A DNA stretch of 64,000 bases, taken from the NCBI GenBank assembly GCA_951406725.2, contig OX597822.1, positions 86,490,001-86,554,000 on the forward strand, written 5' to 3'. Source of the DNA: Octopus vulgaris (Eukaryota). The notes beneath the pieces are model-generated. The model had not been told where the DNA came from, did not search any database, and saw nothing but the letters and a program-made list of their open reading frames with translations. This document shows, one piece after another, positions 14,665-58,054 of the stretch (positions within the stretch are counted from its first letter, which is position 1; each line of letters begins with the position of its first letter). The translations under genes and the position numbers were made by a program.

Positions 14665-15043
14665 CATGTGGCTGTGTGGTAAGTAGCTTGCATCCCAGCC
14701 ACATGGTTCTGGGTTCAGTCCCTCTGTGTGGCACCTTTGGCAAGTGTCTTCTACTATATCCTCAGGCCAACCAAAGCTGTGTGAGTGGATTTGGTAGGAG
14801 GAAACTGAAAGAATCCCATTGTATATATTTGTGTGTCTTTGTCCCACCACCATCACTTGATAACTGATGTTGGTGTGTTTATGTCCCCCATAACTTTGCA
14901 GTTCAGCAAAAGAGACTGATAGAATAAGTACTAGGCATACAAAGAATAAGTCCTGGTGTCAATTTCTTCAACTAAAAACCCTTGAAAGTGGTGCTCCAGC
15001 ATGACCACAGTCAAATGACTGAAACAAGTAAAAGAATAAAAGA
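14665..15043 (+). mobile_element. tRNA-derived SINE, near full length
   Basis: A-box-like tggctgtgtggt and B-box-like ggttcagtccc; short internal TA/TG tract; tail gactgaaacaagtaaaagaataaaag. Serves as the intact reference for the split copy at 46040/55581. Confidence 0.85.
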
Positions 15044-16115: not shown

Positions 16116-16572
16116 ATATATATGTGAAAAAAAAAACCAAGGTAGGAAATGCTAAAATAATTTTATAAAAAACATTTCAGTACCGGTTTCAGTCATTGAG
16201 ACTTTTTCAACTATAAGTATGGAAAACAATTAAATTTTGGAAAAATTAAAAGAAAAGTCTTTTAAAAGAATATTTGCATAGTATTCAAATACAAGAGTCA
16301 TTTTCCTTGTTTCTGCTTGTCTCTGTCTCTCTTATTTACTCTTGTGGGTTCAAGGTCGTTATGTCAGTTAGGCAGAAACAAGGAAAATGCCCCTTGTATT
16401 TGAATACTATGCAAATATTCTTTTAAAATACTTTACATTTAATTTTTCCAAAATTTAATAGTTTTCCATACTTACAGTTGAAAAAGTCTCAATGACCGAA
16501 ACCAGTACTGAAATGTTTTTTATAAAATTATTTTAGCATTTCCTACCTTGGTTTTTTTTTTCACATATATAT
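16116..16572. repeat. ~200-bp-arm palindrome (inverted PLE pLTR-like pair) between TA tracts
   Basis: 16116-16317 is the near-exact reverse complement of 16372-16572, with a ~54-bp spacer. Each arm has a hammerhead-like motif. Confidence 0.85.
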
Positions 16573-33835: not shown

Positions 33836-33997
33836 GCTATATATCTCTGTTTCTATTGAGTACCGTACCCCAATCCTTTCCACTCCTATCTTCTACAAAC
33901 CCACTGATTCCCACCCCTACCAAGACTTTTTATCCTACCCATGCTAAGCACTCCATCCCTAACTCCCAGTTCCTTCATCTCTAGCACCTCTACAGCA

Positions 33998-34050
<53 letters not shown>

Positions 34051-34055
<5 letters not shown>

Positions 34056-35210
34056 CAATGAACACAAAATGAAGACAACTCAGGAGAGGAAAATTTAACA
34101 ATTAAAAAGAAGCAAAAGAGTTTTGATGCTTCAGACACTAGTCCTTCATCAGCAAAATAAAGAATGAGAATGGGTGGTTGGAAAAATTGAGGCCAGGTAG
34201 GAATGCAGCTGTATGGGAAGGGTATCTGTGTATAGGGTTGGACATAGAGTGAAGTGTGTGTGGTTTTATAGGCTGGGTGTGCAAGTATGGGAGTATATTG
34301 GTATAGAATTGTGTGGAAGAAAGAGCAGGTGAAGTAAGAGTGGTGGGTGAGAAGGGAGGCAAGAAGAATTGCGAAGGAGAGTTGAAGCTGAAAGGTTTGA
34401 AGAGAGAAAATGAGCTCTTGTTCCCTCTGGAGCTAAGTGATGAAGAAGCAAGGGGCAGTGGCTATATCAAAGATTGGGAGGTGTTGGTTGAAACTGTTGG
34501 CAAAGTGGTAATATTAAGAACAAAAGACTCCTTACCATGTCATCTATCTCTGAGGTGCACCATGAACCTATCACCCGGCAGTGGCCAGTTTGTCTGATGT
34601 AGAAAAGATTACAGAGGAAACAATGGAATGCATATATAAGGTTAATAAAAATGCAGTGGAAGGAGTGTCTAATGTGGAAAGTGTGGTGGTTGGATGCAGT
34701 AAAGGAGGTGGCATTAGAAAGGAAAAGAGAGGAGCAAAACAGGGAAGGAGATGGGTTATTGGAGGAGGAGGAAGAAGATACTAGAGGTTGCAGGTGTTTG
34801 AAGGGATGGGTGGACAAAGGAAGAAAGTGGAGGTGACAGAGTTAGACTGAAGGCAGTAGAAGAGGCAAAAGATGGTGCATTGTAGGAGCAGAGTGGTAGG
34901 TAAGTGAGTAGGGGATGTGGTGCTTCGGACTTTAGATGTGAAGTGTATGAGGAGTAAATCAATAACACAGGTGTGGGAGAGAGTTGATAAGGAAGGGAGG
35001 GTACCCTTGATAAATGAAGAGACAGACCTGCGTCTCAGAGTATGGATTACTGCTGTAGAGGTGCTAGAGATGAAGGAACTGGGAGTTAGGGATGGAGTGC
35101 TTAGCATGGGTAGGATAAAAAGTCATGGTAGGGGTGGGAATCAGTGGGTTTGTAGAAGATAGGAGTGGAAAGGATTGGGGTACGTACTCAATAGAAACAG
35201 AGATATAGCT
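34051..35210 (-). mobile_element. 5'-truncated Neptune-like PLE relic with GIY-YIG and decayed hammerhead
   Basis: HTFHIRHSFHCIFINLIYAFHCFLCNLFYIRQTG (NLIY..C..C..YIGQTG), then REQELIFSLQTF. Minus-strand CTGATGA-aggac-tagt-gtct-GAAGCATC at 34121-34157; 3' end abuts (TA)n. Confidence 0.75.
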
Positions 35211-42046: not shown

Positions 42047-44180
42047 CAGGGATTGGCAAACCAGAGTAAATTAACCTAAGTGGGGGTAAAAGCGAGAACT
42101 CATCAGTCATAAGTAAAGTTATATAAAAACTGTGTTCCTTTGTACAACAGAAATTTTTCTTCTGGCAACACTGCTTCTGTCCAGTGTAATAAACATGTTT
42201 AGAAGACTTTTTTGGATGTCAGCTGCTGCAAAGGCTTTCAAAGTTGCACATGAGGAGACAGTCAGAAAGTTGCTTCCTTTTGCAACAACCTGCTTTTGTG
42301 AACAAGGATTTTCCATTTTAATTCATCATCATCGTTAAACGTCCGTTCTCCATGCTAGCATGGGTTGGACGGTTTGACCGGGGATCTGGGAAGCCAGAAG
42401 GCTGCACCAGGCTCCAGTCTGATCTGGCAGTGTTTCTACAGCTGGATGCCCTTCCTAACATCAACCACTCCGTGAGTGTAGTGGGTACTTTTTACGTGCC
42501 AGTCGAGGCTGGCAACAGCCACGATCGGATTGGTGCTTTTTACGTGCCACCGGCACGGAAGCCAGTCAAGGAGGCGCTGGCATCAGCCACATTCGGATGG
42601 TGCTTTTTACGTTCCACCGGCACAGGGGTCACAACTACAGTTTCCATTGATTTTTGATGTTGGTGTACTTGACTCAATAGATCTCCTCAAGCACAGGGTC
42701 GAAACGGTGTTTCTTTACTTGCCACCCGCACAGTAGTCAGTCCAGCGGCACTGGCAACTGCCGGGTGCCAGTCATAGGATTGGTTCAATTGCGATTCCGA
42801 TTTCACTTGCCCCAACAGGTCTTCACAAGCAGAGTTTAGTGTCCACTGAAGGGAGGTTGGCATGGGTGCCAGTCGTCGGATGAGGTTCGATTTTGACTTC
42901 ACTTGCCTCAACAGGTATTTGCGTGTCCAAGGAAGGAAAGGAATGCATAAGTGGGCTGGCTACATCCCTGGCAAGGGACATGGGATGGACTCACTTATCC
43001 TGCTGGGTCTTCTCACGCACAGCATATTTCCAAAGGTCTCGGTCACTAGTCATTGCCTCGGTGAGGCCTAAAGTTCGAAGGTCGTGCTTCACCACCTCGT
43101 CCCAGGTTTTCCTGGGTCTACCTCTTCCACGGGTTCCCTCAACCGCTAGGGATTGGCACTTTTTCACACACCTATCTTCATCCATTCTCGCCACATGACC
43201 ATACCAGCGCAATCGTCTCTCTTACTCACCACAGCTGATGCTTCTTAGGTCCAACTTTACTCTCAAGGTACTTACACTCTGTCGACTATGTACACTGATT
43301 TTACACATCCATCAGAGCATACTGGCTTCATTCCTTGTGAGCTTATGCATGTCCTCAGCAGTCACGGCCTATGTTTCACTGCCATGTAGCATGGCTGTTC
43401 ATACACATGCATCATACAATCTGCCTTTTACTCTGAGCGAGAGGCCTTTAGTCACCAGCAGAGGTAAGAGCTCCCTGAACTTTGCCCAGGTTATTCATAC
43501 TCTAGCAGTTACACTTTCAGCACACCCACCCCTGCTACTGACTTGGTCACCTAGGTAACGGAAGCTATCAACTACTTCTAGTTTTTTCCCCTGGAAAGTG
43601 ACAGAAGTTGTTTTCTGCAGATTTTCAGTGTTTATTGCTCCTGAGCATCTGCCACATACAAAAACTATCTTCCCAGTTAGCCTTCCTTTGACATTGCTGC
43701 CCCTCTTATGTGTCCATAGCTTACACTGGGCACATCTTATAGAGTTTCTACCTACGCCTTTCCTACAGATCAAGCAGGGCCATCTTCCTGGAGGCGTTTG
43801 TGGTTTGTCTACCTTCCTACTTATTTAATTAAACCAGAGAAATCAATTGGACTCCAAAAAACTGCATTCCAATTGCTCTGGCATCAAAATGCCCCAATTT
43901 TGATGTAATTCCAACAAAAAGATAACATCATTTCTCCAAAACCTAAGGTGGAAAAGTTTGTAGAAAAATCCTTTTGTTACATAATGAGGATATTAATGTA
44001 TTTTATCACATTTGTTTTATACTTTTTATATTTATAATTGTATTCTCCATATAAATAGATTTAAAGAACCTTTTGAATTCAAAGAATCTATGATTTTCTT
44101 CCTTTCAATTCAAGGGGGGTAATGTTGATACAAATAAATATATTTTGGGGGAATTGCTTAAAAAAGTTCCCTGACCCCTG
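42047..44180 (+). mobile_element. hAT (Buster/Charlie-like) deletion derivative
   Basis: 8-bp TSD CCTTAAAC at 42039-42046 and 44181-44188. TIRs CAGGGATTGGCAAAC / GTTCCCTGACCCCTG. LLPFATTCFCEQGFS is the hAT dimerisation motif. Confidence 0.88.
42324..43823 (-). mobile_element. 5'-truncated RTE-clade LINE
   Basis: LEVVDSFRYLGD; RWYGHVARM...RGRGRPRKTW; (ATG)n tail at 42324; apparent TSD TTTAATT at 42317-42323 and 43824-43830. Confidence 0.9.
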
Positions 44181-46039: not shown

Positions 46040-46266
46040 TCTTTTACTTGTTTCAGTCATTTGACTGCGGCCATGCTGGAGCACCGCCTTTAGTTGAGCA
46101 AATCGACCCCGGGACTTATTCTTTGTAAGCCCAGTACTTATTCTATCGGTCTCTTTTGCCGAACCGCTAAGTGACGTAAACACACCAGCATCAGTTGTCA
46201 AGCAATGCTAGGGGGACAAACACAAACACACACATACATATCTATATATATATATATATATATATA
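46040..46266 (-). mobile_element. 3' half of a SINE split by the PLE complex
   Basis: Reverse complement matches 14830-15035; ends in the internal (TA)n. Confidence 0.85.
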
Positions 46267-46324
46267 GAACATTATTGGTGAATTGAAGAAATGGAGCTGA
46301 ACGCAGATTGAACAGAAATCGTTT

Positions 46325-46418
46325 TATTTCATTCTACACGTGTTTCGAAAGGCACAAATTACCAAAATCCGATGGAATAATGGGACCATATTGTGTCTTT
46401 CTCTTCAGGAAGAAAATA
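46325..46418 (-). ncRNA. Type I hammerhead ribozyme, copy A
   Basis: Exact reverse complement of 54832-54925. Confidence 0.8.
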
Positions 46419-47005
46419 GGAAATCCGTTGGAAAAACAAAAACAGAACAGAGGCGGAGCAAAAACAAATCGAACTATGCTCCTAAGAGCCCATGGCAAAA
46501 CTGTTTATCAGTGTATGTTGAGAACCGGTGGCTGAAGAATTCAACGGGTCAGGCATCGGTCAATCATGTGGGTGAGGGTGCGTAGATGTTCTTTGTGACC
46601 GAGAATAAAGTTCTGACTATTTAAGGAATATTGGATGTTTTATAAGGGGCGAGAAAAAATCTACTTAGAGACGTGTGTGTGTGTATACTGTTCTATATAT
46701 GTGTGTGTTGGCGTAGGGGTAGAAAACATTTTTTGTGTACGTGTGTGCGTTTGATCGTTCGGCTGTCAGTGGCTACTGCCGTGATAACCGTTGGGTGGCA
46801 GAAAAAAAATATATATATATCATGTTTTATGTGTGTGTGTGTTCATCTAAGCCTGCCTTGTCAAGGAAACCCCCCGCTGTGAAAAAACCAAGCCCCGTTT
46901 GTCTTACAGGAGTAATTCCCCTTGCAGTGGTTAATCGTAGATATCTTAAAGGCTATTTCAGAATTTGTTACCAAGGGCTATGGGTGCCGGTATTATTTAT
47001 AAACG

Positions 47006-49693
47006 CTATTTAAAAGCCAGATAAGTGTAACGCCGCCAATGGGGGCATCGAAAAGCCGACTGTAAAAGCCCGTTTACCATCCGGCCTCTGGCAAACAAAA
47101 TATGGAAGAGTTCGGAGACACAAAGGTTGCACTGCCTTCTGCCCCTATCAAATGGGAGGGCCACCGACAAAATTGACCATTCCAGCCTGTAGCTTAAGTT
47201 CGTATCCTTCAGTCGCCATATTAGCTTACTGAGTCCCATGGTCTGGCGCTTGTTCATGTCCCGAAAAGTTGCGTAATGGTTGGAGACACGCAAAGACAAT
47301 CTTGAGGATGAGGCCCCTACATAAGTGAAGACATCTGAGTCCGTGTAAACCTTGCATTGGTAGACGGCGTTTTTGATCTTGGAGTTCGCCGACGTGAATC
47401 TAATTCTGCTAGGATTAGTTTCTGAAATTAGAACTGCGTTCCTGTCACTATATTCGTTCCGAGACCTGCAGCCGCTTACTACTCTATTTTCCACTACGTC
47501 ACTATTAACTATAGGAATAACCCCTGATTCTCCACTATCTATCAAAGTGCTGTCATTGCTACTGCCCGTGGTGCTGCTATTGCGGGAAATGATGCTGGGG
47601 ATGCTATTGGGGCTCTCTACCCTACTCCCATTGTTACCGTCAACCACAACACCCCTATTTATAACTATACCCCTAGTGGGTACTCCCTGGCTGGAGCTGA
47701 GATTATGTGTCACTGTACTGGCTCTCATATCATTATTACTACTATAATTATTCCTACTGAGCATTAAACCGGGAGCGGAAGAGGCTGTGCCTCCGGAAAA
47801 AGGTGATAGGGTCTTAGTAAGTAGCCTATTATTATGGGAGGCGATTATCTGGGCGAGGTTTTTAGTGTTGGAGAAAGCTATCCTAACTTTATGCGAGTTA
47901 ACCGTGGAGTAATATTTGGAATTTCTGGGGAAGTTATTGGCGATGGCTTGTCTAAACATGAGGGGGAGGTTAGTTCTAATCTGCTTACCAAAGGGGATTA
48001 CAAACCATATATGCTTATTCCTATCAGTGTGATGGGTCGGGACGCCAGCTCTCGCATTCGGGTGGGTGATTCTCGGATGAATAACGGGTCTTGGGTTAGT
48101 GTAAGACCTCCCGGACCGATAATTATCCTTGTTCGCTAAATTAAATGCGGGAGCGACTACCCCGGCATCCACCGCGCTCCCGTCCTTACTTAAAATGTTA
48201 ATGTTATTATATACGGCCCTATCCTGATGACCGAATGATGGCATCGGAAGGGCCGGATCAATATAAATTACCTTCTGCCTATAACCGGCCTTGGATAGTG
48301 CGGCGTTATAAAATTCCGCTTTCTGCATAAAAATATCGGCACTGGCGGACAAGCCAGACAATCTTAGAGAGATGTTTTTAACCAAATTGTCTGTTACGGT
48401 TTTGGCATGATTTGAGAAGACACTGACATACTTCAAATTAGTGGAAGGCTTATGGTAAGGGCAGTATGAGCCGCTATTAAGGTTAAGTGTAACGTCTAGG
48501 AAATTAGCCTTGGTGAGTTCATTATCAAAAACTATACTCATGCCCATTCTATTAAAAAACCTAGCTAACCTGCTCTTAGTTTTCTGCACTATTCTGTTCG
48601 TGGTGTTTTGCAGGTAAAACAGACAATCGTCACGATACAGGCCGCCCGCGATCTCCGGGAATTGGTCGGACAATTCGTAGAGAATATATATTCCGACCAA
48701 ATCGGCTATCTGCGCACTATCCGAACTACCCATAGGCACTTCAAATTCATTGGGAGTATCTTTACGGATCCACAACTTATTATCAAACTTAATAAACGAT
48801 TTCCTGGCAACTAAAATGATATCTATCTCTTCTCTGGTGAGGCCAGCCTTGTTGTGAGCATGCCAGAGGGCCTTATTTAGCACACTAGGGTTAATCGAGG
48901 GGTAGAAGCTGGCGATATCAAACTGAATGAACCTAGTACGGTTCTTATTGGGGATGGAAGAGAACCACTTCACTACCTGCGAGGAGTTGGCCCAGAGGCT
49001 GAGCTTCAGCTTGTTTACTAAACTAGGGATATATTTATCTAAAATGTACTTACTGATTATCCCGATATCAGATCTAGCAGGGCATATGAGTCTTAGCGCT
49101 GGGTTGGTGTGGAAGTTCGGTTTATGGTCCTTCACTATAAATCTGGGTTGCTTAGGGCTAAGCGGCTGAGTTCTCATTTGAATTCGGTGTTTAAATATTA
49201 TTTCCTTAATTTCCAAGTTTACCTTCCTCAGGGTACTCCAAATGGTTTTTCTATAATTTTTCTTGATCTCTTTACCGAGTAAATCTACGTACTGCTTAAT
49301 GGGCATCTTGTATGTGTTCCTGGTCTTGTCGGACTGGACCAGGACTCCGTCCGTTCTATTAATGTCCTTGGTAATTTTATCTAGGTATCTGAGGTGGGCA
49401 TTTCTCCTGGGTGACTTCCTGAACTTAATCTTTCTAACTATGTCCCACAAGTCGTCCTCAAACTTCTTCAGTCTTGGGTTAGGTGGCGGCGTATCCAATG
49501 TTTTAAAAAGCCGGCCGTATTCGGACGATGCTGTTGTCCGGTTCGATTTTAGATCTTCGTTCTCGTGGAAGAAAATGAGCCATCTTATCCGGTTTATGAA
49601 TGCGTTGGTTTTACAAACCAACTCCTTAAGGAAGGCATCCTTTGGTGGTATAGGAATATCCTTAAGGGACGCATCAATCTCGAACAACTCCAT
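47006..49693 (-). CDS. PLE polyprotein: reverse transcriptase + C-terminal GIY-YIG endonuclease (895 aa)
   Basis: RT motifs KDHKP..LRLICP, QFDIASFYPSI, PMGS..SAQIADL, YRDD, NFLDVTL, YHKP. EN motifs AVY..YVG, R..NH, CNLC..E, N, CPH. Confidence 0.95.
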   Translation of the reverse strand: MELFEIDASLKDIPIPPKDAFLKELVCKTNAFINRIRWLIFFHENEDLKSNRTTASSEYGRLFKTLDTPPPNPRLKKFEDDLWDIVRKIKFRKSPRRNAHLRYLDKITKDINRTDGVLVQSDKTRNTYKMPIKQYVDLLGKEIKKNYRKTIWSTLRKVNLEIKEIIFKHRIQMRTQPLSPKQPRFIVKDHKPNFHTNPALRLICPARSDIGIISKYILDKYIPSLVNKLKLSLWANSSQVVKWFSSIPNKNRTRFIQFDIASFYPSINPSVLNKALWHAHNKAGLTREEIDIILVARKSFIKFDNKLWIRKDTPNEFEVPMGSSDSAQIADLVGIYILYELSDQFPEIAGGLYRDDCLFYLQNTTNRIVQKTKSRLARFFNRMGMSIVFDNELTKANFLDVTLNLNSGSYCPYHKPSTNLKYVSVFSNHAKTVTDNLVKNISLRLSGLSASADIFMQKAEFYNAALSKAGYRQKVIYIDPALPMPSFGHQDRAVYNNINILSKDGSAVDAGVVAPAFNLANKDNYRSGRSYTNPRPVIHPRITHPNARAGVPTHHTDRNKHIWFVIPFGKQIRTNLPLMFRQAIANNFPRNSKYYSTVNSHKVRIAFSNTKNLAQIIASHNNRLLTKTLSPFSGGTASSAPGLMLSRNNYSSNNDMRASTVTHNLSSSQGVPTRGIVINRGVVVDGNNGSRVESPNSIPSIISRNSSTTGSSNDSTLIDSGESGVIPIVNSDVVENRVVSGCRSRNEYSDRNAVLISETNPSRIRFTSANSKIKNAVYQCKVYTDSDVFTYVGASSSRLSLRVSNHYATFRDMNKRQTMGLSKLIWRLKDTNLSYRLEWSILSVALPFDRGRRQCNLCVSELFHILFARGRMVNGLLQSAFRCPHWRRYTYLAFK

Positions 49694-49892
49694 TATTGGT
49701 ATCGGTTAAAGTAGCAGTTTCTTGACGAAGCAGTATGTATCATGTGAAATAGAAAGATGAATAATCTTGTAGTAGATTAATCAAAAGTTTAACCGATACC
49801 TTAGTAGCAAAAATCACAGCAGTAAAACAGCACGGTTGGAGGTACAACCATATGGTGTTGCAACCGTGCGTTGGTGCGGATAATTGAAATTA

Positions 49893-52405
49893 GAACATTA
49901 TTGGTGAATTGAAGAAATGGAGCTGAACGCAGATTGAACAGAAATCGTTTTATTTCATTCTACACGTGTTTCGAAAGGCACAAATTACCAAAATCCGATG
50001 GAATAATGGGACCATATTGTGTCTTTCTCTTCAGGAAGAAAATAGGAAATCCGTTGGAAAAACAAAAACAGAACAGAGGCGGAGCAAAAACAAATCGAAC
50101 TATGCTCCTAAGAGCCCATGGCAAAACTGTTTATCAGTGTATGTTGAGAACCGGTGGCTGAAGAATTCAACGGGTCAGGCATCGGTCAATCATGTGGGTG
50201 AGGGTGCGTAGATGTTCTTTGTGACCGAGAATAAAGTTCTGACTATTTAAGGAATATTGGATGTTTTATAAGGGGCGAGAAAAAATCTACTTAGAGACGT
50301 GTGTGTGTGTATACTGTTCTATATATGTGTGTGTTGGCGTAGGGGTAGAAAACATTTTTTGTGTACGTGTGTGCGTTTGATCGTTCGGCTGTCAGTGGCT
50401 ACTGCCGTGATAACCGTTGGGTGGCAGAAAAAAATATATATATATCATGTTTTATGTGTGTGTGTGTTCATCTAAGCCTGCCTTGTCAAGGAAACCCCCG
50501 CTGTGAAAAAACCAAGCCCCGTTTGTCTTACAGGAGTAATTCCCCTTGCAGTGGTTAATCGTAGATATCTTAAAGGCTATTTCAGAATTTGTTACCAAGG
50601 GCTATGGGTGCCGGTATTATTTATAAACGCTATTTAAAAGCCAGATAAGTGTAACGCCGCCAATGGGGGCATCGAAAAGCCGACTGTAAAAGCCCGTTTA
50701 CCATCCGGCCTCTGGCAAACAAAATATGGAAGAGTTCGGAGACACAAAGGTTGCACTGCCTTCTGCCCCTATCAAATGGGAGGGCCACCGACAAAATTGA
50801 CCATTCCAGCCTGTAGCTTAAGTTCGTATCCTTCAGTCGCCATATTAGCTTACTGAGTCCCGTGGTCTGGCGCTTGTTCATGTCCCGAAAAGTTGCGTAA
50901 TGGTTGGAGACACGCAAAGACAATCTTGAGGATGAGGCCCCTACATAAGTGAAGACATCTGAGTCCGTGTAAACCTTGCATTGGTAGACGGCGTTTTTGA
51001 TCTTGGAGTTCGCCGACGTGAATCTAATTCTGCTAGGATTAGTTTCTGAAATTAGAACTGCGTTCCTGTCACTATATTCGTTCCGAGACCTGCAGCCGCT
51101 TACTACTCTATTTTCCACTACGTCACTATTAACTATAGGAATAACCCCTGATTCTCCACTATCTATCAAAGTGCTGTCATTGCTACTGCCCGTGGTGCTG
51201 CTATTGCGGGAAATGATGCTGGGGATGCTATTGGGGCTCTCTACCCTACTCCCATTGTTACCGTCAACCACAACACCCCTATTTATAACTATACCCCTAG
51301 TGGGTACTCTCTGGCTGGAGCTGAGATTATGTGTCACTGTACTGGCTCTCATATCATTATTACTACTATAATTATTCCTACTGAGCATTAAACCGGGAGC
51401 GGAAGAGGCTGTGCCTCCGGAAAAAGGTGATAGGGTCTTAGTAAGTAGCCTATTATTATGGGAGGCGATTATCTGGGCGAGGTTTTTAGTGTTGGAGAAA
51501 GCTATCCTAACTTTATGCGAGTTAACCGTGGAGTAATATTTGGAATTTCTGGGGAAGTTATTGGCGATGGCTTGTCTAAACATGAGGGGGAGGTTAGTTC
51601 TAATCTGCTTACCAAAGGGGATTACAAACCATATATGCTTATTCCTATCAGTGTGATGGGTCGGGACGCCAGCTCTCGCATTCGGGTGGGTGATTCTCGG
51701 ATGAATAACGGGTCTTGGGTTAGTGTAAGACCTCCCGGACCGATAATTATCCTTGTTCGCTAAATTAAATGCGGGAGCGACTACCCCGGCATCCACCGCG
51801 CTCCCGTCCTTACTTAAAATGTTAATGTTATTATATACGGCCCTATCCTGATGACCGAATGATGGCATCGGAAGGGCCGGATCAATATAAATTACCTTCT
51901 GCCTATAACCGGCCTTGGATAGTGCGGCGTTATAAAATTCCGCTTTCTGCATAAAAATATCGGCACTGGCGGACAAGCCAGACAATCTTAGAGAGATGTT
52001 TTTAACCAAATTGTCTGTTACGGTTTTGGCATGATTTGAGAAGACACTGACATACTTCAAATTAGTGGAAGGCTTATGGTAAGGGCAGTATGAGTCGCTA
52101 TTAAGGTTAAGTGTAACGTCTAGGAAATTAGCCTTGGTGAGTTCATTATCAAAAACTATACTCATGCCCATTCTATTAAAAAACCTAGCTAACCTGCTCT
52201 TAGTTTTCTGCACTATTCTGTTCGTGGTGTTTTGCAGGTAAAACAGACAATCGTCACGATACAGGCCGCCCGCGATCTCCGGGAATTGGTCGGACAATTC
52301 GTAGAGAATATATATTCCGACCAAATCGGCTATCTGCGCACTATCCGAACTACCCATAGGCACTTCAAATTCATTGGGAGTATCTTTACGGATCCACAAC
52401 TTATT
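49893..52405 (-). mobile_element. PLE copy B, 5'-truncated tandem copy (extended pLTR)
   Basis: Matches 46267-48781 apart from a few substitutions and two homopolymer indels; breaks at NKLW, upstream of PMGS/YRDD. Confidence 0.95.
49951..50044 (-). ncRNA. Type I hammerhead ribozyme, copy B
   Basis: Identical to copy A, 3626 bp away and ~260 nt upstream of the ATG of the intact ORF. Confidence 0.8.
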
Positions 52406-55134
52406 TGGCCTCACCAGAGAAGAGATAGATATCATTTTAGTTGCCAGGAAATCGTTTATTAAGTTTGATAATAAGTTGTGGATCCGTAAAGATACTCCCA
52501 ATGAATTTGATGTGCCTATGGGTAGTTCGGATAGTGCGCAGATAGCCGATTTGGTCGGAATATATATTCTCTACGAATTGTCCGACCAATTCCCGGAGAT
52601 CGCGGGCGGCCTGTATCGTGACGATTGTCTGTTTTACCTGCAAAACACCACGAACAGAATAGTGCAGAAAACTAAGAGCAGGTTAGCTAGGTTTTTTAAT
52701 AGAATGGGCATGAGTATAGTTTTTGATAATGAACTCACCAAGGCTAATTTCCTAGACGTTACACTTAACCTTAATAGCGGCTCATACTGCCCTTACCATA
52801 AGCCTTCCACTAATTTGAAGTATGTCAGTGTCTTCTCAAATCATGCCAAAACCGTAACAGACAATTTGGTTAAAAACATCTCTCTAAGATTGTCTGGCTT
52901 GTCCGCCAGTGCCGATATTTTTATGCAGAAAGCGGAATTTTATAACGCCGCACTATCCAAGGCCGGTTATAGGCAGAAGGTAATTTATATTGATCCGGCC
53001 CTTCCGATGCCATCATTCGGTCATCAGGATAGGGCCGTATATAATAACATTAACATTTTAAGTAAGGACGGGAGCGCGGTGGATGCCGGGGTAGTCGCTC
53101 CCGCATTTAATTTAGCGAACAAGGATAATTATCGGTCCGGGAGGTCTTACACTAACCCAAGACCCGTTATTCATCCGAGAATCACCCACCCGAATGCGAG
53201 AGCTGGCGTCCCGATCCATCACACTGATAGGAATAAGCATATATGGTTTGTAATCCCCTTTGGTAAGCAGATTAGAACTAACCTCCCCCTCATGTTTAGA
53301 CAAGCCATCGCCAATAACTTCCCCAGAAATTCCAAATATTACTCCACGGTTAACTCGCATAAAGTTAGGATAGCTTTCTCCAACACTAAAAACCTCGCCC
53401 AGATAATCGCCTCCCATAATAATAGGCTACTTACTAAGACCCTATCACCTTTTTCCGGAGGCACAGCCTCTTCCGCTCCCGGTTTAATGCTCAGTAGGAA
53501 TAATTATAGTAGTAATAATGATATGAGAGCCAGTACAGTGACACATAATCTCAGCTCCAGCCAGGGAGTACCCACTAGGGGTATAGTTATAAATAGGGGT
53601 GTTGTGGTTGACGGTAACAATGGGAGTAGGGTAGAGAGCCCCAATAGCATCCCCAGCATCATTTCCCGCAATAGCAGCACCACGGGCAGTAGCAATGACA
53701 GCACTTTGATAGATAGTGGAGAATCAGGGGTTATTCCTATAGTTAATAGTGACGTAGTGGAAAATAGAGTAGTAAGCGGCTGCAGGTCTCGGAACGAATA
53801 TAGTGACAGGAACGCAGTTCTAATTTCAGAAACTAATCCTAGCAGAATTAGATTCACGTCGGCGAACTCCAAGATCAAAAACGCCGTCTACCAATGCAAG
53901 GTTTACACGGACTCAGATGTCTTCACTTATGTAGGGGCCTCATCCTCAAGATTGTCTTTGCGTGTCTCCAACCATTATGCAACTTTTCGGGACATGAACA
54001 AGCGCCAGACCACGGGACTCAGTAAGCTAATATGGCGACTGAAGGATACGAACTTAAGCTACAGGCTGGAATGGTCAATTTTGTCGGTGGCCCTCCCATT
54101 TGATAGGGGCAGAAGGCAGTGCAACCTTTGTGTCTCCGAACTCTTCCATATTTTGTTTGCCAGAGGCCGGATGGTAAACAGGCTTTTACAGTCGGCTTTT
54201 CGATGCCCCCATTGGCGGCGTTACACTTATCTGGCTTTTAAATAGCGTTTATAAATAATACCGGCACCCATAGCCCTTGGTAACAAATTCTGAAATAGCC
54301 TTTAAGATATCTACGATTAACCACTGCAAGGGGAATTACTCCTGTAAGACAAACGGGGCTTGGTTTTTTCACAGCGGGGGTTTCCTTGACAAGGCAGGCT
54401 TAGATGAACACACACACACATAAAACATGATATATATATATTTTTTTTCTGCCACCCAACGGTTATCACGGCAGTAGCCACTGACAGCCGAACGATCAAA
54501 CGCACACACGTACACAAAAAATGTTTTCTACCCCTACGCCAACACACACATATATAGAACAGTATACACACACACACGTCTCTAAGTAGATTTTTTCTCG
54601 CCCCTTATAAAACATCCAATATTCCTTAAATAGTCAGAACTTTATTCTCGGTCACAAAGAACATCTACGCACCCTCACCCACATGATTGACCGATGCCTG
54701 ACCCGTTGAATTCTTCAGCCACCGGTTCTCAACATACACTGATAAACAGTTTTGCCATGGGCTCTTAGGAGCATAGTTCGATTTGTTTTTGCTCCGCCTC
54801 TGTTCTGTTTTTGTTTTTCCAACGGATTTCCTATTTTCTTCCTGAAGAGAAAGACACAATATGGTCCCATTATTCCATCGGATTTTGGTAATTTGTGCCT
54901 TTCGAAACACGTGTAGAATGAAATAAAACGATTTCTGTTCAATCTGCGTTCAGCTCCATTTCTTCAATTCACCAATAATGTTCTAATTTCAATTATCCGC
55001 ACCAACGCACGGTTGCAACACCATATGGTTGTACCTCCAACCGTGCTGTTTTACTGCTGTGATTTTTGCTACTAAGGTATCGGTTAAACTTTTGATTAAT
55101 CTACTACAAGATTATTCATCTTTCTATTTCACAT
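52406..55134 (+). mobile_element. PLE copy C, 5'-truncated inverted copy
   Basis: Begins at GLTREEIDI, ORF stops at 54245, runs through the 3' UTR and 151 nt into the next unit's leader, then (TA)n. Confidence 0.95.
54832..54925 (+). ncRNA. Type I hammerhead ribozyme, copy C
   Basis: Stem I tattttcttc/gaatgaaata; core CTGAAGA; stem II GAAAGaCACAA...TTGTGcCTTTC; GAAA; stem III C-ACGT-G; GTA cleavage triplet (after 54915). Confidence 0.82.
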
Positions 55135-55205
55135 AATATATATATATATATATATATAGATATGTATGATGATGATTATTATATATATATATATATATAT
55201 ATATA

Positions 55206-55581
55206 GATAAGGCGCAGGAGTGGCTGTGTGGTAAGTAGCTTGCTAACCAACCACATGGTTCCGGGTTCAGTCCCACTGCGTGGCATCTTGGGCAAGTGTC
55301 TTCTGCTATAGCCCTGGGCCGACCAATGCCTTGTGAGTGGATTTGGTAGACGGAAACTGAAAGAAGCCTGTCGTATATATGTATGTATATATATATATAA
55401 ACATACATATATACGACAGGCTTCTTTCAGTTTCCGTCTACCAAATCCACTCACAAGGCATTGGTCGGCCCAGGGCTATAGCAGAAGACACTTGCCCAAG
55501 ATGCCACGCAGTGGGACTGAACCCGGAACCATGTGGTTGGTTAGCAAGCTACTTACCACACAGCCACTCCTGCGCCTTATC
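55206..55581. repeat. Perfect inverted pair of SINE 5' halves
   Basis: 55206-~55386 is the reverse complement of ~55403-55581, around a short TA spacer. Confidence 0.92.
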
Positions 55582-55591
55582 TATATATATA

Positions 55592-55674
<83 letters not shown>

Positions 55675-57402: not shown

Positions 57403-58054
57403 GAAATAGATTTACAATGAATGTAGAAAAAGACTGGCATTTAGTTTTATAGTAGACATACAAATAAATTTGCATATAGATTTAAGAATAAAATAACATG
57501 TAGATTATCAATACATTTACAAAACATGTAGATTATCAATCTACTTATGAAAACATCAACACATCTATCGATATGAATTAAGAAAATGTTCCTACATGTA
57601 AACAGCGTGTGAACTGTATGAATACAGTGCAGACTGCAATATTATCGATAGGTAAATGGTGATTTCTGTCTGCTTGTGTTGTTGAATGTTACATAGAATA
57701 CATCATTACAAAACATTAACACATCTATCAATATGAATGAAGGTGTTCCTACATGTAAACAGGGTGTGATCTTTGTGCTGACAATGCATTTGTCTAAAAG
57801 CAGAACAGTTCTTCATGCGGCACTTGTCAATTGGCTGAAGTGACATGAAAGGCATCATCCACGATCGGATGGTGCTTTTTACATGCCACCAGCACAGAAG
57901 TCAGTCAGGGCGAGGGGGCTGACCACAACTACAATTTCCATTTGATTGTGATTTGATTTCATTTGATGTTGATTATGTATAAGATAAAAGGAGATGTGTA
58001 TGTGTGTGTATTGAACTGGATAATCAATGCTATCTTATTTTCTATTTCAGTAAA

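Follow-up and report, generated by a model that had tools for sequence, protein, structure and literature searches.

Introduction

Penelope-like elements (PLEs) are the sister group of the telomerase reverse transcriptases (RTs), and one of them is the subject of this study. It lies in a 64,000-nt window of AT-rich, repeat-laden eukaryotic DNA from Octopus vulgaris (GenBank assembly GCA_951406725.2, contig OX597822.1, positions 86,490,001 to 86,554,000 of the forward strand; coordinates below are counted within this window), where three element copies carry identical predicted type I hammerhead ribozymes. Here, we show using motif searches, covariance modelling and comparison with related loci that the predicted cut of these hammerheads falls at a polyadenylation (poly(A)) hexamer, and that copies of the element end beyond the cut.

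Hammerheads about 3 kb apart around PLE open reading frames (ORFs) were described by Cervera and de la Pena (2014; PMC4209133), who proposed self-cleavage, ligation into circles and reverse transcription of more than one unit for all PLEs to explain their tandem copies. In PAc of Anolis, the one PLE that has been reconstituted, reverse transcription initiates internally, both strands are nicked and extended, and cleavage is protein-assisted; hammerhead mutants insert normally, and none of the reported RNA-sequencing reads has its end at the cut site (Frangieh et al, 2024; PMC11167929). The Naiad and Chlamys PLEs form the same tandem and inverted structures mostly without hammerheads, and the function of hammerheads in PLEs has been called unclear (Craig et al, 2021; PMC8557442). 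Two systems outside the PLEs are also informative. Non-LTR retrozymes carry tandem type I hammerheads one unit apart, as this locus does, and some of them cleave in a dimer-dependent manner, but retrozymes are non-coding units of 170-400 nt whose circles have been shown experimentally, whereas the unit in the window is 3.6 kb long and coding, and its circle is hypothetical (Cervera and de la Pena, 2020; PMC7229834). The hammerhead of the Clec2 3' untranslated region (UTR) likewise cuts between a stop codon and a polyadenylation signal, but it is of type III, discontinuous, resides in a host gene whose expression it lowers, and is without a tandem upstream copy (PMC6765202). Against this background, the octopus element is a well-preserved, young, Penelope-type element and an ordinary example of a known design, for which the RNA circle is a published and still hypothetical mechanism.

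Results

Identical hammerheads in a partial tandem of Penelope-like copies

A type I hammerhead descriptor run over both strands of the 64 kb gave exactly three matches, two on the minus strand, with cores at 50034 and 46408 (cuts after 49961 and 46335), and one on the plus strand, with its core at 54842 (cut after 54915). The same three matches came from a second descriptor, which had none when applied to 20 Markov resamples of the window. They represent an upstream hammerhead in copy B (49949-50046, minus strand; predicted cut 49961/49960), a downstream one in copy A (46323-46420, minus strand; predicted cut 46335/46334) and a third in the inverted copy C (54830-54927, plus strand; predicted cut 54915/54916), and the three 96-nt stretches are identical to each other. 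A covariance model built only from the hammerheads of 12 relatives recovers all three (E 3.2e-4, on a rough calibration). Rfam reported no hammerhead family, either across the window or in 49700-50700, a miss that we attribute to the limit of its models.

Each hammerhead consists of a 9-bp stem I with one mismatch, a CUGAAGA core, a 10-bp stem II with a long loop, GAAA and a palindromic stem III. It thereby resembles the hammerheads of PLE pseudo-long terminal repeats (pLTRs), which are of type I with a short palindromic helix III and a long helix II and occur in pairs about 3 kb apart around an ORF (PMC4209133); like these, the window hammerheads sit in pLTRs. With a stem II/loop II of 55 nt and a stem III that is palindromic, they differ from the hammerhead of Hydra-1_Obim, and a 16-nt piece of the window hammerhead was not found in the available portion of the supplement of Craig et al (PMC8557442). 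The active monomer fold is predicted to lie 1.5 kcal/mol above the minimum, with stem III contributing nothing, while for an active dimer formed by way of the palindrome the prediction is -40.1 kcal/mol, versus -31.8 kcal/mol for two monomers. The hammerhead thus belongs to the type with a short palindromic stem III that is predicted to work as a dimer, and self-cleavage is predicted at all three sites. Free-energy z-scores of the region (0.32 and -0.11) are unremarkable, so folding energy itself provides no evidence for the hammerhead.

The original prediction, which described identical sense-strand hammerheads 3626 nt apart in copies B and A with an intact 895-aa ORF (47006-49693, minus strand) wholly between their cuts, is borne out by the descriptor matches, the 96-nt identity and the coordinates. 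It had further read this spacing as exactly one unit-length RNA. The distance between the cuts at 49961 and 46335 is real, yet it is merely the repeat period and no sign of design, because every position in a tandem repeat recurs after one unit; 26% of the positions in the unit fall outside the ORF. The stretch from the upstream cut to the ATG forms a 267-nt leader (49694-49960, minus strand) that holds the hexamer described below, three 3'-end sites of the family (49891, 49743 and 49734) that are inferred RT start sites, and four short upstream ATG frames. No spliced intron was seen in the leader; one 72-nt skip, in a single contig of one public run (X14), has no GT-AG ends. An assembly artefact at the join of leader and ORF was considered and is unlikely, as a 1555-nt contig of another run (X3) spans 48213-49767.

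According to self-BLAST and the flanks, the whole insertion occupies 46265-55142, and its outer ends are on both sides element 3' ends passing into (TA)n, the presumed target (left flank 46243-46264, right flank 55143-55158), at which no target-site duplication is readable. Copy A (46265-49733, minus strand; 3469 nt) is full, carries the intact ORF and has its 3' end 70 nt past the cut. Copy B (49734-52405, minus strand), identified by sequence comparison, is 5'-truncated, lies in tandem upstream of A and is the source of the upstream pLTR; it differs from A by three substitutions and two one-base indels, and together they form 1.7 seamlessly joined units. Copy C (52406-55142, plus strand) is inverted and 5'-truncated, stands head-to-head with B and has its 3' end 218-227 nt past the cut. 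A partial tandem with pLTRs, often accompanied by an inverted 5'-truncated copy and optionally by a tail, is characteristic of endonuclease-bearing PLEs, and the architecture here agrees with that given in the legend to fig. 2 of Craig et al (PMC8557442). B and C meet bluntly at 52405/52406, at a short palindrome; in unit coordinates C is truncated only 64 nt further upstream than B. A fold-back origin of B from C is not favoured, because B and C, with six internal differences, are no more alike than A and C, with five, and because A continues B seamlessly.

The three copies form an allelic mosaic when compared with four public runs: the allele at 48471 is matched by B alone, that at 48740 by C alone, that at 47238 by B and C, and that at 47402 by none of the three. 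Copy A has private alleles at 46875, where it carries an additional base, and at 47238, where it has a T. Mixed templates, gene conversion and polishing are candidate causes of the mosaic.

The predicted cut coincides with a polyadenylation hexamer

An AATAAA hexamer lies 6 nt after the downstream cut (46323-46328, minus strand), partly within the 3' strand of stem I, and has twins at 49949-49954 (minus) and 54922-54927 (plus). Downstream of its stop codon, copy A contains no other AATAAA or ATTAAA. To place this arrangement in context we used related metagenome loci, namely the best 80 of 185. Among these, the descriptor found 23 sense matches in 22 loci, one of which (L034, at 5227) looks spurious, along with one antisense match and none in resamples, and the covariance model gave 54 matches in 47 loci. 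In the 12 relatives' hammerheads, from which the window's was excluded and in which that of L048 is misaligned, 13 of 18 pairs are altered on both sides, a level reached in 0 of 500 shuffles, a control that is inflated by kinship. The hammerheads are thus conserved with covariation in the sequences of the relatives. Viral contigs gave 57 pattern matches but no relative.

For the hexamer test, 53 hammerhead rows were clustered on the sequence 5' of the cut (58 model rows less three broken or doubtful cores, one weak window match and two duplicate window copies, plus one descriptor match; the cut position of L048 was corrected). A canonical hexamer starts between -1 and +7 from the cut in 11 of the resulting 17 clusters, versus 1.3 expected when the same 14 nt are shuffled, and in 6 of 490 other bins; other clustering thresholds give 14/20 and 10/16, and seven of the 11 clusters outside the training set of the covariance model have it as well. 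An earlier canonical hexamer after the stop codon is absent from 13 of 14 representatives, and the hexamer stays within 9 nt of the cut in related 3' regions ranging from 30 to 670 nt. Two large groups have a first stem I pair that switches from ATTAAA to AATAAA and back, the scissile bond falling inside the hexamer. Judging from these sequences, a predicted cut at a poly(A) motif would let the ribozyme steer how the element RNA ends. The available text of PMC4209133 is silent on poly(A) signals at the cut and on where copies end with respect to it, and a literature search returned no paper on an overlap of poly(A) hexamer and hammerhead cut, which figures or supplements could still mention.

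Paired hammerheads 2397-2496 nt apart occur in seven related loci, so that bracketing of an ORF by hammerheads is ordinary in this group. Both cores and the ORF are intact in L009, L034 and L047, the downstream core is broken in L018 and L032, and the ORF is damaged in L001 and L064. The cut precedes the conserved start codon by 147-174 nt (11 rows), and monomers would therefore keep the ORF.

Copy 3' ends lie beyond the cut

The 3' ends of copies A and C, at +70 and +218/+227 from the cut, have counterparts elsewhere. When contigs of the four public runs were compared with one unit, the loose ends listed included (TA)n ends at 49734 (X3 and X14) and 49743 (X3), and summed contig depth, a coarse measure, falls 9- and 18-fold across the 49734/49743 point in two DNA runs with no similar step at the cut. 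In the relatives, 16 of 17 copy 3' ends fall between +39 and +122, where they form two groups, and the remaining one, at -8, belongs to a broken copy; some of the 17 are assembly branch points, and the set excludes reciprocal rows, ends at the edge of the query (+297), two family-divergence rows (+11 and +97) and microsatellite rows of L067. The few 5' divergence points include one near the cut (+5), the others being at least 36 nt away.

Because copies end beyond the cut, a linear cut monomer could template only short pieces and not full copies. Together with the position of the poly(A) hexamer, these ends call for a template that is continuous across the cut, either uncut read-through RNA or a circle. 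If 3' ends mark the starts of reverse transcription, as has been shown for the Anolis element, the start sites would lie at the extreme 5' end of the cut-to-cut monomer. The octopus element shares with PAc, which is a Poseidon element, an AT-rich target, copy ends (the RT starts in PAc) downstream of the cut and two classes of ends; in PAc, however, the cut lies 26 nt inside the ORF and reverse transcription starts within the ORF, whereas both sites fall in the non-coding leader here (PMC11167929). A joint of 50225 to 46600 was examined as possible evidence for a circle and rejected, as it is merely the unit continuing over the chosen cut point.

In the leaders of related loci (L002-L068), 13 of 17 copy 3' ends are followed by a GCTCC or GCTCT pentamer that starts 0-12 nt behind them, versus 12 of 139 nearby windows. 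The window itself has a GCTTC 2 nt behind its +227 end (49733-49727, minus strand). The pentamer is a candidate signal for positioning the initiation of reverse transcription.

The encoded protein is related to the Hydra clade

The 895-aa ORF has no internal stop and, according to its translation, alignment and structure model, combines an RT with a C-terminal GIY-YIG domain. It contains the telomerase-like RT residues D259 and YRDD (353-356) as well as Y778, Y791, G793, R802, H806, E861 and N874 of the endonuclease, and the AVY...YVG core, R802, H806, E861 and N874 are nearly invariant in a 16-row alignment of the ORF with 15 homologues. The protein is thus a predicted GIY-YIG endonuclease with its catalytic residues kept. 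There are 104 homologues among 8000 scored candidates, the closest informatively named one being an Argonauta protein (P0009). The structure model (predicted local distance difference test score, pLDDT, 75) has telomerase RTs as all of its best eight fold matches (E 4e-9 to 6e-8), and a Pfam scan of the ORF matched neither an RT nor a GIY-YIG family.

Many features are those of the Hydra clade, for instance Penelope-1_NV and Hydra-1_Obim (PMC8557442). The endonuclease is C-terminal, with neither an N-terminal endonuclease/CxC block nor a fingers insertion, and the ORF is collinear with Hydra-type homologues across the RT core. RWL (R37, W38), in which the third residue deviates from RWK, and DKT (122-124) are present; as expected for this clade there is no CCHH, with only one Cys within the GIY-YIG core, and E and N are flanked by C855-x-x-C858 and C883-x-H885. 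At the DNA level, the shared features also include an inverted 5'-truncated copy, (TA)n at both flanks and at the loose ends in two runs, and a canonical hammerhead close to the 3' end. One related locus (L037) encodes a protein 33% identical to the ORF over 644 columns (E 1e-92), and its hammerhead equals that of Penelope-1_NV by eye. In contrast to the Hydra clade, the linker has a single Cys left (C742) in place of CxCX5C, a motif retained by all 14 homologues in the alignment that extend into this region; there are two low-complexity inserts; and the unit, at 3626 nt, exceeds the general size of less than 3 kb, because of these inserts and a long 3' region. The inserts, both of low model confidence, span aa 486-559 (48017-48238, minus strand), mostly missing in relatives, and aa 632-766 (47396-47800, minus strand), which is S/N-rich and includes the degenerate linker; rotifer Penelopes are also known to have N-rich inserts (PMC3846280). 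On account of the reduced linker and the size of the unit we file the element as a new, Hydra-related Penelope-like family rather than a full member of the Hydra clade, a placement made by similarity alone.

The linker zinc-finger motif has been lost in A, B and C, though the family still ends in (TA)n. Craig et al tied the CxCX5C motif to (TA)n targeting (PMC8557442), and this family may be a counter-example or may have been mobilised in trans. In five related loci (L009, L020, L024, L042 and L043), the ORF gains a hydrophobic extension of about 25 residues at its N-terminus through an in-frame ATG that lies 81-85 nt behind the cut.

Discussion

What could a ribozyme placed on a poly(A) hexamer do for this element? 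We suggest that full copies are made from uncut read-through RNA and that the ribozyme acts at the decision on the 3' end, a reading that in our judgement stands evenly balanced between right and wrong. The Penelope element of D. virilis has its own Pol II promoter (PMC2377424), and by extension a capped transcript could start from a promoter in the upstream pLTR and would meet the hexamer twice. From the position of the hexamer in the sequence, folding of stem I would mask it, and cutting would sever everything 3' of the cut. In the upstream copy, masking may avoid early termination. In the downstream copy, use of the hexamer would yield an mRNA that lacks the RT start, and masking would allow read-through into the leader. 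Only RNA continuous across cut and signal could template the ends at +70 and +218-227, which are farther away than a normal poly(A) site would be. By analogy with the Anolis element, the RT-endonuclease would then nick (TA)n and start in the leader, and priming on both break ends could give rise to the head-to-head join of B and C.

Several observations weigh against this reading. A and B together exceed one promoter-to-tail transcript, so that this reading has to invoke either a longer master or a template jump, or else a second insertion, whereas a circle does without any of these. Read-through RNA would be rare if the poly(A) signal were efficient. The Anolis element belongs to another clade and cuts within its ORF, and one related copy (L027) starts 5 nt from the cut. 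The public runs consist of assembled contigs in which RNA ends are not visible, and their RNA status is guessed. The hexamer clusters share ancestry, and the covariance model covers 12 nt past the cut and may favour matches that bear a hexamer. Finally, in the table of Craig et al (PMC8557442), a canonical hexamer is at the cut in only 3 of 24 distinct Hydra hammerheads and a variant in five more, by eye, so that the overlap is not clade-wide.

The original prediction had read-through transcription release an ORF-complete monomer that could become a circle. Double cleavage by a hammerhead dimer would indeed free such a 3626-nt monomer, whose linear form could template short pieces only; the circle is a hypothesis published in 2014 (PMC4209133). 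In this scheme the dimer would cut both ends and so detach the cap together with the poly(A) stub, the monomer would be closed by a ligase of the host, weak stem III would protect the circle, and reverse transcription would start in the leader and roll past one unit to leave partial tandems. We regard this as possible but on the doubtful side. It would account for the 1.7 seamless units of A and B without any bypass of the poly(A) signal, make use of start sites that at the 5' end of a cut monomer are useful only after ligation, and fit with the stem III that is idle in the monomer, the predicted stability of the dimer and the ORF-preserving cut position in relatives; small type I hammerhead retrozymes do circularise (PMC7229834). 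However, the Anolis hammerhead is dispensable in vitro and no reported read ends at its cut (PMC11167929), hammerhead-less Naiads have the same architecture (PMC8557442), and metazoan PLE hammerheads are weakly active in vitro (PMC4209133). The allele mosaic is unexpected from a single template, though as evidence it is weak because conversion or polishing could produce it, and the four upstream ATGs in the leader speak against a circle as they do against direct use of the monomer as messenger. That use, in which the cut monomer would be an uncapped mRNA freed from host read-through transcripts and translated independently of a cap, like RNAs with R2-type or some RNA-virus ribozymes, appears very improbable: the fairly constant distance from cut to ATG in relatives would suit it, and type I hammerheads in chrysovirus UTRs support cap-independent translation (PMC13725137), but the downstream cut would strip the poly(A) tail, and Penelope has the promoter of its own mentioned above.

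Alternatively, the hammerhead might have no role in the full element and be kept by short, retrozyme-like pLTR copies, the hexamer being nearby since both belong at the 3' end. Craig et al raise the idea that hammerheads may parasitise PLEs (PMC8557442), a preprint of 2026 traces retrozymes back to pLTRs (10.64898/2026.07.22.740005), and by summed contig depth pLTR pieces are far commoner than ORF 5' ends. The compensatory changes across families of autonomous elements, the fixed position of the hexamer within 9 nt of the cut in 3' regions of such different length, and the absence of a tandem retrozyme array from the window in self-BLAST make this quite improbable. A further proposal, which we think unlikely, joins two of these ideas: the Hydra-type hammerhead would be a switch over the poly(A) signal, such that use of the signal gives a messenger without RT start, and dimer cleavage strips cap and tail to give a 3.6-kb coding RNA circle as a true rolling template. 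If so, the retrotransposon would be autonomous and pass through a viroid-like intermediate, copy A would regain its missing +71 to +227 tail in the circle, and a single allele-phased long read could test the 2014 hypothesis.

This locus adds two constraints to the open question of what hammerheads do in PLEs: the copy ends behind the cut, which exclude the linear cut monomer as template, and the coincidence of cut and hexamer in many related families, which offers the ribozyme a concrete and testable role in the choice of 3' end. The junction sequence of a circle would equal genomic sequence. With the private alleles and short 3' end of copy A, a single long read could tell a circle from read-through RNA, and polymerase chain reaction across the junction could not.

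Elsewhere in the window, a dispersed repeat with internal 141-nt tandem units occurs at 67-1395, 42512-42925 and 57851-57903 (families D7, D8, D11 and D12), in which the hammerhead has no match. A 520-nt near-perfect palindrome of a dispersed repeat (55133-55654), framed by (TA)n and 84% identical to 14668-14834, directly adjoins copy C, and similar inverted pairs lie at 16116-16572 and 33864-35184. Possibly this palindrome was inserted by the same machinery as the Penelope-like element.

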